A stretch of DNA of 64,000 nt. It comes from an uncultured Nitrospirota bacterium. Its GTDB lineage: Bacteria; Nitrospinota; Nitrospinia; CAJXCL01. Numbering within the stretch: position 1 is the first letter of the stretch; every line of letters starts with the position of its first letter. The position numbers and the translations under genes were made by a program. The notes below the pieces were generated by a model. It was not told the DNA's origin. It made no database searches and saw only the letters and a list, made by a program, of their open reading frames with translations. This document shows positions 14,099 to 24,027 of this stretch, one piece after another. The stretch is taken from assembly GCA_913051775.1 (NCBI GenBank), contig CAJXCL010000002.1, positions 18,307 through 82,306 on the forward strand, written 5' to 3'.

Positions 14099-15502
14099 TT
14101 GGGAAATAACAAAGGAAAAATTGCTCAAATTATCGGGCCGGTAGTGGATGTTGAATTTCAACCAGAAAACCTGCCGGCTATTTACAATGCTGTTACTATA
14201 AAGAATAAAGAAAAAGATATAAACCTTGTCCTTGAAGTGGCCCAGCAATTAGGGGACAGCGTGGTACGCTGTGTGGCTATGTCCGCCACTGACGGACTGG
14301 TGCGGGGCATGGAAACGGTTGATACAGGAAATCCTATCACGGTACCGGTTGGTGAAAAAAGCCTCGGACGTATAATGGACCTGCTTGGTAATCCGGTTGA
14401 TACCGGTGGCGCAATTGATTCTGAATTTCATTCTCCTATTCATAGACCGGCTCCATCATATGAAGACCAGGAATCGTCTTCTACTCTTTTTGAAACAGGT
14501 TTAAAAGTTATTGACCTGTTGGAGCCTTATGTTAAGGGCGGCAAGATCGGACTTTTCGGCGGTGCCGGAGTGGGAAAAACTGTATTAATCATGGAACTCA
14601 TTAACAATATCGCCAAACAGCATGGCGGTCTCTCTGTTTTTGCGGGGGTGGGCGAGCGGACAAGGGAAGGAAACGACCTCTGGCTCGAAATGAAAGAGTC
14701 AGGCGTTATTGATAAAACCGTGCTGGTTTTCGGACAGATGAATGAACCTCCCGGCGCAAGGCTTCGTGTCGGATTATCCGCTCTAACGCAAGCGGAATTT
14801 TTCAGGGATAAAAGAGGGCAGGATGTTCTTCTGTTTGTTGACAACGTATTCCGGTTTACCCAGGCCGGTTCTGAAGTTTCAGCTTTATTAGGGAGAATGC
14901 CGTCCGCGGTAGGATACCAGCCGACCCTTTCCACAGAAATGGGAAACATGCAGGAAAGAATCACATCAACCAAAAAAGGATCTATCACGTCTGTGCAGGC
15001 GATTTACGTTCCTGCGGATGATATTACAGACCCGGCTCCGGCAACAACATTCTCTCATTTAGATGCCACCACCGTTTTGTCACGGCAAATTGCGGAACTC
15101 GGCATTTACCCGGCTGTTGATCCATTAGATTCAACATCACGAATTCTGGACCCCAGGGTAATAGGCGATGAACATTACAGTGTAGCAAGAAATGTGCAGG
15201 GAATTTTACAAAAATACAAAGACCTGCAGGATATTATAGCCATTCTTGGAATGGAAGAACTCTCTGATGAAGACAAACTCACTGTTACCAGGGCAAGGAA
15301 AATTCAAAAGTTTCTTTCACAGCCTTTCTTTGTGGCTGAGCAGTTCACGGGTACACCAGGAAAATATGTGAAACTGGAAGACACTATCCGAAGTTTTAAA
15401 GAAATTGTCGATGGAAAACATGATGATGTACCGGAACAAGCGTTTTACATGGTGGGCGATATGAGCGAAGTGCTTGAAAAAGCCAAGAAAATGAAGGAAT
15501 AA
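14099..15502 (+). CDS. atpD: F-type ATP synthase subunit beta
   Basis: P-loop GGAGVGKTV and DELSDED-like region. TTG start. Confidence 0.95.
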
Positions 15503-15861
15503 AACCATGCCCTAATTTCCACCTATCAATGGGGGACACAGGGGATGTTAGCTACATTACAACTCAAAAGGATATGGCTGAAGATAAAACATTCAAGTTA
15601 GAGCTTATCATTCCTAACGAGGTGGTATTCAGTAAAGACGTGATAAGTATTACGGCGCCAGGCTCAGAAGGATGCCTGGGCATCCTGCCTCAACATGCTC
15701 CTTTAATTACATCTTTAAAAGAAGGACAGATAAAAATTCAGGAATCTCAAAAGTCTGAGCTTCTGGTTTCTATCAGAGAAGGGTTTCTTGAAGTCTTAAA
15801 TGATAAAGTTGTTATCCTGGTTGATAAAACAGAAATAGAAACGCGAGCCTCCCTATCATAA
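15451..15861 (+). repeat. Left copy of a ~410-bp segmental duplication (atpD 3' end, intergenic spacer and atpC)
   Basis: ggtgggcgatatgagcgaagtgcttgaaaaagccaagaaaatgaaggaataaaaccatgc…gttagctacattacaactcaaaag… is repeated at 23623-24027. Confidence 0.8.
15574..15861 (+). CDS. atpC: F-type ATP synthase subunit epsilon, short form of about 95 aa
   Basis: MAEDKTFKLELIIPNEVVF… beta-sandwich domain. RBS aaaagga precedes the ATG at 15574. The ORF-track start at 15529 is an upstream extension. Confidence 0.8.
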   Translation: MAEDKTFKLELIIPNEVVFSKDVISITAPGSEGCLGILPQHAPLITSLKEGQIKIQESQKSELLVSIREGFLEVLNDKVVILVDKTEIETRASLS

Positions 15862-15890
15862 ATAAAAAAGCAATAGAGGAGTTTTTTTAA

Positions 15891-16364
15891 ATGAACTTTG
15901 TTTTTACCTCAATAATAATGTTTGTTTTCTGGATACTCCTGTCAGGTGAGTTCCATTTTTTACTCATGCTCTCAGGTATTGTATTTAGCCTCTTTGTTGC
16001 GTACATATCTCATGACCTTTTGATCGGAAGCGATAATATTAGACTTTTCTCTACAAGGATGCTCAGATTCTGCAGATACGTGCCGTGGCTTGTCTGGCAG
16101 ATTTTGCTGGCTAATCTCGACTTGGTCTATCGCACCCTGCACCCGAAAATGCCGATAGACCCACAGGTTATCAGATTTGATACAGCTCTTAGGTCAGATA
16201 TAGGGATAACAGTTCTTGCCAACTCAATAACACTCACACCCGGTACAGTCACTATAGTGGCAAACCAGGATGGTGAATTCATTGTCCATGCCATAGCAAG
16301 GAAGCCTGCTAAAGATCTTCTGGCAGGCGAGATGCAGGCAAAGGTAAAGAGAGTAGAGGGATAA
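15891..16364 (+). CDS. mrpE: Mrp/Mnh cation:proton antiporter subunit E
   Basis: MnhE-type signature SITLTPGT plus N-terminal TM helices. Confidence 0.8.
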   Translation: MNFVFTSIIMFVFWILLSGEFHFLLMLSGIVFSLFVAYISHDLLIGSDNIRLFSTRMLRFCRYVPWLVWQILLANLDLVYRTLHPKMPIDPQVIRFDTALRSDIGITVLANSITLTPGTVTIVANQDGEFIVHAIARKPAKDLLAGEMQAKVKRVEG

Positions 16365-16367
16365 TCA

Positions 16368-21801: not shown

Positions 21802-23575
21802 CTGGATTCCTCCGGCAGCTATATTTATTTTTGGGGCATGCATTATCCCATTTCTAACAGGAAAGGCAAAGCAGGTCTATTTACTTCTACTTCCTGTTCT
21901 TGCTTTTATAAACCTTCTTAACATGCCTGAGGGTACAGACTGGGTATTTAATTTTCTTGGCTATGAAGTTATCTTTGGCAAGGTTGATAAACTGAGCAAG
22001 GTCTTCGGTTATATCTTTGTAATAATGGCATTTGGAGGGGCACTATTCTCTCTCCATTTAAAAGAGCAGCAAGAATCTGTGGCTGGATTTCTTTATGCCG
22101 GCGGCTCTCTCGGGGTTGTATTTGCAGGAGACTTCCTTTCTCTCTTTATCTTCTGGGAAATTATGTCAGTTTCATCAACTTACATCGTCTGGAGCCGAAG
22201 AACAAAGGCAGCCCAAGATGCGGGGTTAAGATATATCCTTGTGCATCTATTGGGTGGACTGTTCCTTTTATTCGGCATAATCATAAACGCATCTAATTCG
22301 GGCTCTATCGAGTTTGGTTTTATAGAATTAAATGGATTAGCGTCTTATCTTATACTGATTGGTTTTGCCGTGAATGCTGCCATTCCTCCTCTGTCTGCAT
22401 GGCTCTCCGATTCCTATCCTGAGTCAACAGTAACAGGAGCTGTATTCCTGAGTGCCTTTACAACCAAGACTGCAGTGTATGTCCTGTGCAGGGCGTTTCC
22501 AGGCGCAGAAATTTTGATATGGGCAGGGGCATTGATGACGATATACGGCATTATATATGCCATCTTAGAGAATGATATGAGGCGGGTTTTGGCATATAGC
22601 ATTATTAACCAGGTTGGATTTATGGTGGCAGGAATTGGAATAGGCACGGAACTATCAATCAATGGTACTGCCTCACACGCCTTTGCACATATCCTCTATA
22701 AGGCTTTGCTTTTCATGTCTGCCGGAGCGGTACTGTATAGGACAGGTAAAAGCAAGTGCACAGACCTAGGTGGGCTGTATAAGACAATGCCTGTAACCCT
22801 TATTTTTTGTCTTGTTGGTGCAGCCTCTATCTCAGCGTTTCCTCTAACCGGAGGATTTATAAGTAAATCAATGATAATTTCCGCATCAGGCCATGAGAAG
22901 ATGACAGTTATATGGTTGCTTCTCAACCTTGCATCAGCAGGGGTCTTCCTCCATGCAGGCATAAAATTCCCCTACTTTGTATTCTTTGCGAAGGACTCAG
23001 GTTTAAGGCCAAAGGAGCCGCCTTTAAACATGCTTCTTGCCATGGGCTTTTTTGCCTTTTTATGCATCTTTATCGGTGTATTTCCCGGGGTGCTTTACAG
23101 GATACTCCCATATCCTGTTGAATTTGTTCCTTACACTGCGAGTCATGTGATTAACCAACTCCAGATACTCTTATTCTCTGCCTTAGCGTTTTTTACACTC
23201 TTAAAATTTCTCCAGAGAACAGAAACGATAAGCCTCGATACCGACTGGTTTTATAGAAAAGGGTCCAGAGCCTTCTTGTGGTTTGTGGATAATCCAATGT
23301 CCAGATTTGGTCACCAGATGGGAAAGATTTTTTTCTATTATATCCTGGATTCCCTCATATGGTTTAGCAGAAACCCACTGGCAGTTCTCAAGATGGCTGC
23401 TGATACAATGTTCTTGTTGGTTAGCGATCCTGATCAAAGAATAGAAATAAAGAAACGAATAGAAAAAGAGAAGGAAATCTATCCGGGTGATATAATCAAA
23501 CACTGGCCTATAGGCTCAACAGTTCTGTACCTGACCTTCTTTCTCTTAACCTGTTTGTTGGTGTATTACTTGTAA
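21794..23575 (+). CDS. Third NuoL/M/N-like antiporter subunit with a C-terminal extension of about 120 aa
   Basis: RBS agagga precedes the ATG at 21794. Antiporter core (…HAFAHILYKALLFMSAGAV…) followed by an extra C-terminal TM region. Confidence 0.75.
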   Translation: MTNWIPPAAIFIFGACIIPFLTGKAKQVYLLLLPVLAFINLLNMPEGTDWVFNFLGYEVIFGKVDKLSKVFGYIFVIMAFGGALFSLHLKEQQESVAGFLYAGGSLGVVFAGDFLSLFIFWEIMSVSSTYIVWSRRTKAAQDAGLRYILVHLLGGLFLLFGIIINASNSGSIEFGFIELNGLASYLILIGFAVNAAIPPLSAWLSDSYPESTVTGAVFLSAFTTKTAVYVLCRAFPGAEILIWAGALMTIYGIIYAILENDMRRVLAYSIINQVGFMVAGIGIGTELSINGTASHAFAHILYKALLFMSAGAVLYRTGKSKCTDLGGLYKTMPVTLIFCLVGAASISAFPLTGGFISKSMIISASGHEKMTVIWLLLNLASAGVFLHAGIKFPYFVFFAKDSGLRPKEPPLNMLLAMGFFAFLCIFIGVFPGVLYRILPYPVEFVPYTASHVINQLQILLFSALAFFTLLKFLQRTETISLDTDWFYRKGSRAFLWFVDNPMSRFGHQMGKIFFYYILDSLIWFSRNPLAVLKMAADTMFLLVSDPDQRIEIKKRIEKEKEIYPGDIIKHWPIGSTVLYLTFFLLTCLLVYYL

Positions 23576-23622
23576 AGTAAAACTAAATCGTTCAATAATG
23601 TCTTCAGATTCTTTGAACAGGG

Positions 23623-23670
23623 GTGGGCGACATTGACGAAGTGCTTGAAAAAGCAAAGAAAATGAAGTAA
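23623..23670 (+). pseudogene. Remnant of the atpD 3' end, part of the duplicated segment
   Basis: ggtgggcgacattgacgaagtgcttgaaaaagcaaagaaaatgaagtaa encodes …[15 protein letters not shown]. The genuine atpD C-terminus is …[16 protein letters not shown]. Confidence 0.8.
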
Positions 23671-23745
23671 TAAAACCATGCGCTGTTTTCCCCCCTATCA
23701 AGAGGGGAAACAGGTGGTGTTAACTACATTACAGCTCAAAAAAAA

Positions 23746-24027
23746 ATGGCTGAAGAAAAAACATTCAAGTTGGAAATTATCACGCCTAACGAGGTGGTAT
23801 TAAGCAAGGATGTGTTGAGCATTACAGCTCCCGGAGCAGAAGGATCCTTTGGAATCCTTGCCAACCACGCACCTTTTATGACTTCCCTTGACAAAGGCGA
23901 ACTGAAAATCAAAGAACCCGGCCAGGTAAATCCTCTAATTATCGACATCAATAAAGGCTTTCTCGAAGTCTTAAACAACAAAGTTGTTGTCCTCGTCGAT
24001 AAAGTCAAAACCGAAGATCAAGAGTAG
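23746..24027 (+). CDS. Second ATP synthase epsilon paralog, short, about 65% identical to atpC
   Basis: MAEEKTFKLEIITPNEVVLSKDVLSITAPGAEGSFGILANHAPF… It is preceded by the same upstream sequence and RBS as atpC. Confidence 0.8.
   Translation: MAEEKTFKLEIITPNEVVLSKDVLSITAPGAEGSFGILANHAPFMTSLDKGELKIKEPGQVNPLIIDINKGFLEVLNNKVVVLVDKVKTEDQE

Follow-up and report, generated by a model that had tools for sequence, protein, structure and literature searches.

Among the gene clusters of Mrp-type antiporters (Mrp/Mnh/Pha, CPA3), some with several MrpD copies or with an unusual gene order are on record (PMC5703873). In Methanosarcina acetivorans, a functional interplay between Mrp and the ATP synthase has been described (Jasso-Chavez et al., as cited in PMC5703873). 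A laterally transferred, Na+-translocating F-type ATPase, the N-ATPase, is encoded by an operon of the order atpDCQRBEFAG (Dibrova et al., 2010, as cited in PMC12342949). Within the Nitrospinota, the genome paper of N. gracilis notes a sodium-gradient dependence and an Mnh-type antiporter, with no linkage to atp genes (PMC3578206). The subject here is a 64-kb stretch of contig CAJXCL010000002.1 from an uncultured marine Nitrospinota bacterium, termed the window, in which a ten-gene Mrp cluster is nested in the operon for the F1Fo ATP synthase (atp), between two intact genes for a short epsilon subunit.

Each component is known by itself: the F-type atp operon, the Mrp/CPA3 cluster with Mbh-like order and insertion by homologous recombination. 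Full-text literature searches turned up neither a nested atp-Mrp layout with two epsilon genes, nor a duplicated atpC, nor a clade-specific linkage between atp and antiporter genes, in accord with an earlier note on this DNA, which did not recognize the layout as a described operon type. The structural finding is solid. The arrangement probably arose by recombination within atpC, a mechanism that is well supported.

Direct repeats and the mosaic epsilon gene

The segments 15451-15861 and 23622-24027 are direct repeats 8.17 kb apart, each composed of the tail of atpD, the atpD-atpC spacer and a short epsilon gene; these and the other genes, repeats and promoter-like sites of this locus are on the + strand. 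A repeat search detected in-register repeats at a distance of 8171-8175 nt (73 nt at 86%, 229 nt at 75% and 57 nt at 81% identity), and pairwise alignment of both copies supports homology across ∼410 nt. The earlier note had already described the cassette as bracketed by direct repeats, with 23623-24027 homologous to 15451-15861, and the two methods agree with it. In the left copy, termed W1 after the window lineage W, the part with recent homology spans 15451-15639 and consists of the atpD tail (15451-15502), the spacer (15503-15573) and nucleotides 1-66 of atpC. This part is 80-88% identical to 23622-23811. The first epsilon gene, atpC1 (15574-15861), is intact and encodes 95 aa (PF02823, TIGR01216). 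The right copy, W2, begins with a non-coding 49-nt remnant of the atpD tail (23622-23670), seen in both the repeat search and the alignment, that holds the last 15 codons and the stop ([15 protein letters not shown]). This is followed by the second spacer (23671-23745), 80% identical to the first and with a stem-loop (UUUCCCC...GGGGAAA; fold z-score -3.0), and by the second epsilon gene, atpC2 (23746-24027), also intact, which encodes 93 aa and adjoins the host downstream genes.

Gene callers start the left epsilon gene at ATG 15529 (110 aa). This call is probably over-extended and the true start is probably ATG 15574 (MAEDK, 95 aa), because 15529-15573 is homologous to the non-coding spacer of copy 2 and to that of other lineages.

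Identity between W1 and W2 is 88% in the atpD tail, 80% in the spacer, 85% in atpC nucleotides 1-66 and 60-69% from nucleotide 67 to the end of the gene; the two epsilon proteins are 63% identical. The non-coding parts had been called nearly identical in the earlier note and the epsilon paralogs about 65% identical, and both figures are lowered by these values. In copy 2 the stem-loop of the spacer is at its strongest; copy 1 has a weaker version, the related lineage S has lost most of it and lineage S2 has it (see below). The spacer is very variable among lineages, 44 to 286 nt in length, and in S2 and a further lineage, X, it has ∼200-nt inserts of short repeated motifs.

Related atpD-atpC regions were gathered via epsilon and MrpE homologs and aligned to W1 and W2, and identity was scored per segment. 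The lineages are S (contigs L087-L090), S2 (L165), U (L091, L106), V (L095, L109), X (L104) and W′ (L166). All sources with the layout of the window are marine metagenomes, and NCBI labels members of the epsilon cluster 'Nitrospinota bacterium'. In V, the order atpD-atpC-CitMHS-MpsC is followed by ∼100 nt of an atpD tail, an atpC with a frameshift and a stop, and then mrpE; the disrupted atpC is referred to as the V remnant.

The affinities of the two copies change within atpC. The atpD gene (14099-15502) is of host type to its very end, its tail being 96% identical between W1 and S, and the W1 spacer is 82% identical to that of S. Nucleotides 1-66 of atpC are mutually 85-89% identical in W1, W2 and S, versus 55-64% to U and V. 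From nucleotide 67 to the end, W1 stands closer to V or the V remnant (80-91%) than to W2 or S (60-69%), and W2 is 87-91% identical to S and 76-91% to U. At sites where W1 and W2 differ, S is W1-like up to ∼15630 (15:7) and W2-like thereafter (5:72; p=8e-9). The V remnant becomes W1-like after 15600 (1:8, then 56:21), and V and the V remnant switch at 15600-15633, opposite to S. Because S and the V remnant switch affinity in opposite directions at this point, atpC1 is seen as a recombinant gene, with a host-type 5′ end (the first ∼30-60 nt), a cassette-type 3′ part and a breakpoint at ∼15600-15640. By the same comparisons, atpC2 past nucleotide ∼30-60 is an ortholog of the single atpC of S and S2, and the 3′ part of the right epsilon gene is taken to be the host's original gene.

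Two further properties tie the left epsilon gene to the cassette. In the window, X and the V remnant alike, the epsilon just 5′ of mrpE carries the C-terminal motif DK[IT]EIET, and the window shares the ribosome-binding site and start region of mrpE with the V remnant.

Direct repeats with a fragment of a gene end are also what remains after a tandem duplication. Thus atpC and the atpD tail might have been duplicated in situ, with divergence of the paralogs and later insertion of unrelated Mrp genes between them. Such an origin is improbable. The 3′ part of the left epsilon gene is 80-91% identical to epsilon genes that precede mrpE elsewhere but only 60-69% to the right copy, and its synonymous divergence (dS) is 0.47 to the atpC of V and 2.3 to atpC2 (Nei-Gojobori method, own script; dS values above 1 are near saturation, a caveat to such figures). 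In addition, the junction of atpC stop, ribosome-binding site and mrpE is shared with the V remnant and the breakpoint within the gene is sharp. The earlier note read the repeats as the footprint of an insertion or duplication event: recombination, together with the empty sites in S and S2 and the low dS of the Mrp genes between lineages, bears out the first part, but plain duplication does not fit the mosaic left epsilon gene.

Repeats of 190-400 nt can mislead short-read assemblers, and a chimera joined via the repeated atpD/atpC segment was considered. The chance of this is negligible: the repeats, at 60-88% identity, are too diverged to collapse, and an identical layout with identical proteins is found on more than 20 contigs, up to 172 kb in length, from differing samples and assemblers (ENA/Tara, JGI, Logan, SPAdes).

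Empty sites, other placements and exchange of the cassette

In S, the gene order is atpD-atpC-ankyrin-...-molybdopterin oxidoreductase, with the downstream synteny of the window but without Mrp genes, and the ATP synthase proteins are 91-99% identical to those of the window. S2 likewise has atpD-atpC-ankyrin. Judged from gene order and identity, S and S2 represent the empty site. The W-S dS is ∼0.25 for all shared genes, including atpC2, and the cassette is absent in S. The possibility, raised in the earlier note, that related genomes uniformly carry the same contiguous arrangement can be set aside, as S and S2 have no cassette and others place it elsewhere. In U, the same type of Mrp cluster is found directly upstream of atpZ. 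X has the order atpD-atpC-mrp-CoaE followed by a 5′-truncated atpC, and W′ has a cassette-type atpC upstream of mrpE. The second epsilon gene of X (L104 9604-9852), 3′ of CoaE, is without its first ∼11 codons and without an atpD tail; a different breakpoint would thus have given the same general epsilon-mrp-epsilon pattern.

The arrangement of the window is real, and its most probable source is a Campbell-like, homologous exchange within atpC in which the host recombined with a cassette that bears atp-end fragments; the whole is probably co-transcribed. The partners would be the host atpD-atpC-ankyrin locus and an Mrp cassette with an atpD tail-spacer-atpC segment before mrpE. A Campbell-type single crossover of a circularized fragment, or an equivalent unequal sister-chromosome exchange during transformation, would place a block of ∼8.17 kb (∼15,620-23,790) inside atpC, at the 3′ end of the F1Fo operon. 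The block would comprise the 3′ two-thirds of a foreign atpC, the Mrp cluster, the 49-nt atpD tail, the spacer and the first ∼30-60 nt of an atpC. The left copy would then join a resident 5′ part to an incoming 3′ part, and the right copy an incoming 5′ part to a resident 3′ part. Two hybrid, intact epsilon genes would result around the cassette, and the same repeats could delete the cassette again. The hybrid nature of the left copy is clear. In the right copy, the 3′ part is of resident type, and the 5′ part is U/V-like at the atpD tail yet W/S-like overall, so that gene conversion or an old duplication may have played a part. The right atpD tail retains two states also seen in U and V, GDIDEV and AAAGCA, and W1 and S share derived states; the U/V-like states are as expected if this tail is donor-derived.

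Several points weigh against this origin. The 5′ part of the right copy (atpD tail, spacer and atpC nucleotides 1-66) is W/S-like overall and not V-like, so that the Campbell model requires either a donor near W/S that has not been sampled or a subsequent gene conversion between the repeats, and no donor contig was found among the contigs examined. An atpD/atpC remnant 5′ of mrpE was searched for in U and other Mrp loci and none was found. The V cassette is two genes away from the resident atpC. Since U has no atp remnant before mrpE and V has its cassette at this distance, not every placement appears to have followed the same route. Lastly, in a comparison with U as the outgroup, informative sites of atpD group S with S2 (10 versus 3 and 2), and because these two group together, a single acquisition by W and a single loss via the repeats in the ancestor of S and S2 fit equally well.

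The last point bears on a second explanation, in which the ancestor that W, S and S2 share already had the cassette and the sister lineages lost it by homologous recombination between the repeats, the window then having the ancestral state and the empty sites being precise deletions. A deletion at ∼15600-15640 would recreate S exactly, with a W1-like atpD tail and atpC 5′ end and a W2-like atpC 3′ part. The W1/W2 spacer identity of 80% is close to that of W1 and S (82%) and fits a W-S dS of about 0.25, so that the repeats would be about as old as the W/S split; a single loss suffices with S and S2 grouped together, and Mrp genes adjoin atp genes in X, U and V as well. However, ancestral presence leaves the low divergence of the Mrp genes and the atpC1 3′ part, relative to atpD, unexplained, and lateral exchange is still needed. 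Also, U and X have almost the same mrpD2 and mrpD3 but the cassette at different ends of the operon, which argues for repeated relocation and not for one ancestral position. Ancestral presence with later loss is possible but rather unlikely.

Mobile elements and genomic islands were considered as vehicles and rejected. Family scans revealed no transposase, integrase or recombinase in or next to the block, the 64-kb window has no tRNA genes, a scan for Rfam families gave no match, and base composition shows no anomaly, with a flat GC profile along the locus. The flanking repeats are diverged gene fragments of 190-410 nt, unlike the ends of transposons, integrons or integrative elements.

Apart from its placement, the cassette itself shows signs of exchange. 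Between W and V, dS is 1.66 for atpD and 1.71 for atpG, versus 0.40-0.90 for mrpE to mrpD2 and 1.65 for mrpD3. Between W and X, it is 0.83 for atpD versus 0.15 for mrpE, 0.28 for mrpF, 1.11 for mrpD2 and 1.79 for mrpD3. X and U, which carry the cassette at opposite operon ends, differ by 0.61 in atpD versus 0.27 in mrpD1, 0.16 in mrpD2 and 0.17 in mrpD3, and U and V by 1.22 in atpD versus 0.26 in mrpF, 0.25 in mrpG and 0.17 in mrpD1. As dS changes abruptly from gene to gene, these values indicate that Mrp segments were exchanged between lineages, among cassettes, well after the host lineages had split. The mrpD3 of the window has a dS of about 1.7 to every Nitrospinota lineage tested, and its protein is 78% and 76% identical to those of contigs L115 and L007, respectively, versus 65-67% to U, V and X. 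The third antiporter subunit of the window would thus have yet another source than the rest of the cassette.

Mrp modules of this kind have a wide distribution and occur in Nitrospirota, Scalindua, Desulfobacterota and ANME archaea. F-type atp genes are nearby in none of 80 genome loci with this Mrp type and in 3 of 56 metagenome loci, which belong only to V and to one further lineage, Y; the atp-Mrp linkage is clade-specific. A GTDB genome scan with the 593-aa antiporter subunit found no genome from the lineage of the window, the top match being 76% identical, and a metagenome scan with the MrpE alignment did not retrieve the window lineage but mostly unrelated lineages without atp genes. In Y, which is unrelated (L149 1234-1458 and 458-724; L144 1-2900), a C-terminally truncated AtpZ-like open reading frame is directly 5′ of mrpE. 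It is 60-66% identical to AtpZ of Nitrospinota and ∼30% to the AtpZ of Y itself, whose own atp operon adjoins this frame and is divergently transcribed. Perhaps the cassette, itself free of mobility genes, is addressed by homology, with the atp-end fragments it carries (atpD tail and atpC, or atpZ in Y) guiding recombination into or next to the atp operons of new hosts, with selection for co-expression on account of the Na+/H+ economy of energy-limited marine cells, and with the travelling epsilon maybe acting as a functional isoform that alters coupling or regulation where Mrp is present; this proposal is speculative and is put forward tentatively.

The 5′ edge of the operon also differs between lineages. 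S has a PF00999 Na+/H+ exchanger gene (L087 997-2163) on the same strand, ∼230 nt upstream of atpZ, and no homolog of it is present anywhere in the 64-kb window. Synteny between the window and S begins only at 7859 (S 2324-2700 matches window 7859-8235 in blastn), and this edge would therefore be a rearrangement breakpoint as well.

Gene content, transcription and possible coupling

According to the map of open reading frames and family scans, which bear out the gene content given in the earlier note (the atp operon, the Mrp cluster and the second atpD tail, spacer and epsilon gene), the atp operon has the canonical F-type order atpZIBEFHAGDC and extends from atpZ at 7951 through the end of the short epsilon gene at 15861. 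The genes are an atpZ-like gene (ATPase_gene1; 7951-8196; PF09527, E 8e-15), atpI (8193-8672; PF03899), atpB for Fo subunit a (8806-9561; PF00119), atpE for Fo subunit c (9649-9912; assigned by family match), atpF for subunit b (10313-10801; PF00430), atpH for delta/OSCP (10798-11346; PF00213), atpA for alpha (11495-13009; PF02874, PF00006, PF00306), atpG for gamma (13148-14005; PF00231), and atpD for beta and atpC as given above. All eight core subunits (a, c, b, delta, alpha, gamma, beta, epsilon) are thus found by Pfam in the order BEFHAGDC. The hallmarks of an N-ATPase are absent: delta is encoded, the gene order is canonical, no atpQ or atpR was found at the operon, and scores with the alternate F1F0 NCBIfam models, 36-51 bits, stay far below the cut-offs of 100-131.

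The c subunit keeps the Glu, Ser and Tyr of the Na+ site, with Ala in place of Gln32 and Leu in place of Thr67; the full ligand set we take to be Gln32, Glu65, Ser66, Thr67 and Tyr70 (numbering of Ilyobacter, I. tartaricus). Its best Protein Data Bank (PDB) matches are the H+ c-rings 2WIE and 4MJN, and the Ala is aligned to the conserved Gln of 2WIE. As two residues of the full Na+ site are absent and the closest solved relatives are H+ rings, the c-ring is predicted to be H+-coupled and the ATP synthase probably uses H+. The retained Glu-Ser...Tyr leaves room for partial Na+ binding, a point on the other side. The gap between atpE and atpF (9913-10312) is unusually long, 400 nt, and contains two terminator-like hairpins (10078-10092 and 10156-10169) and a 67-aa open reading frame (10103-10306) that is reported by some gene callers; it could be an attenuator or a decayed b′ gene.

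The Mrp (CPA3) cluster of ten genes (15891-23575) starts 29 nt past the atpC1 stop, and gaps within it are mostly 0-4 nt or overlaps. It begins with mrpE (15891-16364; PF01899, E 7e-36), mrpF (16368-16622; PF04066) and mrpG (16622-16936; PF03334). These are followed by a fusion of an MrpA-C-terminal-like part (MbhD and MbhE) with MrpB (17062-18090; PF13244, PF20501, PF04039; NF009161 335.8 bits, cut-off 272), and by the NuoK-like mrpC (18087-18515; PF00420). In the window, MbhD/MbhE/MnhB is a single open reading frame of 342 aa that lies after a 125-nt gap (16937-17061) behind mrpG; in U, V and X it is split over two overlapping frames and there is no gap. Three antiporter subunits make up most of the remainder. 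The first is MrpD-like (18512-20047; PF00361), with MBS subunit H (6U8Y_H), MbhH and MrpD as best PDB matches. The second is NuoL/MrpA-N-like (20052-21554; PF00361; NF006236 670 bits, cut-off 663); its best PDB match is NuoL, MrpA is matched too, and PF00662 scores 23.3, just below the cut-off of 24.5. The third (21794-23575) has 593 aa and a C-terminal extension (NF009310 766 bits, cut-off 564; PDB match 6U8Y_X). A 610-aa reading of it from TTG 21743 was rejected, since an exact look-up was empty and called genes start at ATG 21794. Homologs of MrpB, C, D, E, F and G are thus co-encoded (PF04039, PF00420, PF00361, PF01899, PF04066, PF03334), and of MrpA the C-terminal MbhD/MbhE part is present but fused to MrpB, and the NuoL-like part may be represented by the separate second subunit.

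Between the second and third antiporter subunits is a small membrane open reading frame of 80 aa (21559-21801), its function unassigned and without a match in family scans. It has positional homologs of 40-69% identity and recurs at this place in virtually all related Mrp clusters, perhaps as an accessory subunit of Mrp that has not been described so far.

No redox module (NuoB/C/D/H/I-like) is encoded; all ten open reading frames of 15891-23575 are Mrp-type or the small frame, and the flanks are the atpC copies. For this reason the cluster is read as a stand-alone antiporter and not as part of a hydrogenase, MBS or complex-I-like complex. From what is known of the family, it is predicted to use the membrane potential to drive Na+/H+ exchange.

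Both epsilon proteins match PF02823 (E 6e-24 and 5e-25) and pass TIGR01216 (86.2 and 84.9 bits; cut-off 67.25). Neither has the C-terminal helical regulatory domain: there is no match to PF00401, and the match covers only 1-82 or 1-84 of the 130 profile positions. In the related clade, short epsilons are the norm. Both genes are intact in all population variants seen. The dS of atpC2 to S is 0.25, like that of neighbouring genes, with a dN/dS of 0.33, and as its nonsynonymous divergence (dN) to the outgroup U equals that of the single epsilon of S (0.135 versus 0.134), atpC2 does not appear to be obviously decaying. On the other side, the W branch of atpC2 has five nonsynonymous and two synonymous changes, which are small counts. 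The right junction (23576-24215) shows 17 differences in 609 nt within the population of the window, versus ∼0.2% elsewhere, a more than 10-fold excess. This segment varies by 1.9-2.8% (window versus L098 and L100), with 5-7 differences in atpC2 (7 in 282 nt) and none in the 288 nt of atpC1. The polymorphism suggests ongoing local recombination or relaxed constraint, and together with the branch counts it hints at some relaxed constraint on atpC2. Epsilon redundancy appears usually to be resolved, as the cassette-borne copy of V is a pseudogene and the displaced copy of X is truncated. The window may represent an intermediate before such a resolution, or both epsilon isoforms may be in use.

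Promoter-like sites are found only before atpZ and before the ankyrin gene. The first is a sigma-70-like candidate (7866-7895; TTGACA-18-TAAATT, 10 of 12 matches). The second, the best promoter-like site of the region (24122-24150; TTGACA-17-TAAAAT, 11 of 12 matches), likely marks the downstream limit of the transcription unit. It precedes a gene for an ankyrin-repeat protein of 162 aa (24216-24704; Pfam), which is directly 3′ of atpC2 and has the same position in S and S2. No terminator-like site was found in the atpC1/mrpE gap (15861/15891) or the mrpD3/atpC2 gap (23575/23746), and a hairpin after atpC2 is not significant (z -0.5). With promoter-like sites only at the ends, no terminator-like site at the junctions and tight gaps, a single transcript is likely, and atpZ to atpC2 is probably one transcription unit of 20 genes. 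Both scans rely on consensus matches only, which tempers this reading.

If so, a predicted electrogenic Na+/H+ antiporter would be made in step with a probably H+-coupled ATP synthase. Their co-expression would link the export of Na+, the capture of H+, the control of cytoplasmic pH and the build-up of a sodium gradient in seawater to the use of the H+ gradient in ATP synthesis. A physiological coupling of Mrp and ATP synthase, as suggested in the earlier note, is plausible but hypothetical; its support is indirect and comes from the lack of a terminator-like site between the genes and from the repeated occurrence of antiporter genes beside atp operons in this clade. The best indirect argument that an association between atp and antiporter genes is selected comes from the PF00999 exchanger 5′ of atpZ in S. 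This exchanger is non-homologous and at the other operon end, and homology targeting cannot explain it. The contrary view, that the adjacency has no physiological meaning and that an ordinary salt-tolerance or pH module landed where atp-derived homology directs recombination, has a little less than an even chance. It accords with the atp scraps found on cassettes, which in W, V and X are an atpD tail and atpC and in Y a truncated foreign atpZ, with the decay of redundant epsilons in V and X, with the finding that the same Mrp type is almost never next to atp outside the clade, and with the genome paper of N. gracilis, which treats the Mnh-type antiporter simply as a salt-tolerance system (PMC3578206). 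Against it are, besides the exchanger of S, the cassette of U, which abuts atpZ though it has no atp remnant upstream of mrpE, and the window itself, in which the 29-nt gap and the lack of a terminator-like site make co-expression likely.

The main nitrite oxidizers of the dark ocean are among the Nitrospinota and live near the thermodynamic limit, and how they partition H+ and Na+ gradients is poorly known. The recurring antiporter-atp linkage, together with the alternative exchanger of S, offers a testable link between sodium/pH homeostasis and ATP synthesis, and defined contigs are available on which existing ocean metatranscriptomes could address co-transcription. The locus also provides a clean natural case in which an operon-sized block was probably exchanged between lineages by homologous recombination inside an essential gene, without mobile-element machinery and with two intact hybrid copies of the gene as the outcome, and a natural pair of short epsilon isoforms for the study of epsilon without its C-terminal regulatory domain.

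Comparison with known systems

Of the Mrp/Mnh/Pha (CPA3) antiporters, the window has all subunit families: E, F, G, the A-C-terminal part with B, C and D/A-like. The nearest Mrp forms are the non-canonical clusters with multiple MrpD (group 3, such as mrpCD1D2EFGAB of Aphanothece) and the Mrp-like arms of the Pyrococcus MBH and MBS complexes. The order E-F-G-(MbhD/E/B)-C-D in the window presumably matches that of mbhA-H, and in structure the large subunits come closest to MBS H and H′, MbhH, MrpD and NuoL/MrpA. Unlike MBH and MBS, the cluster has no redox module, and it has three antiporter-like subunits and the conserved 80-aa open reading frame. It differs from known Mrp clusters in being nested in an atp operon, with an epsilon gene before mrpE.

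Compared with the canonical F1Fo operon (atpIBEFHAGDC), the window has the same order and content, including atpH, with atpZ and atpI upstream. Unlike the canonical operon, it has two epsilon genes that are 7.7 kb of antiporter genes apart, and both are without the C-terminal helical domain.

Campbell integration, merodiploids formed by transformation and homology-facilitated illegitimate recombination (PMC3784515, PMC3240628) likewise introduce a block without mobility genes and with homologous flanking repeats, which are hybrids, as the left repeat is here and the right one may be. In contrast to those cases, the event in the window would be natural and old, with repeats at 80-88% identity, and would have taken place inside an essential operon by way of an inferred intermediate, with both hybrids intact.

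The interplay in M. acetivorans follows the same logic, in that Mrp adjusts Na+ and H+ gradients for the ATP synthase, whereas the coupling proposed for the window is suggested by gene neighbourhood. The M. acetivorans ATP synthase is of the archaeal type, unlike that of the window, and we know of no genetic linkage of its genes to those of Mrp.

The N-ATPase differs in that the ATPase of the window is a canonical one with delta and an incomplete Na+ site, the mobile part here being the antiporter. The two systems are nevertheless alike as laterally mobile modules of ion homeostasis that are tied to F-type ATPase genes in marine or halotolerant bacteria.

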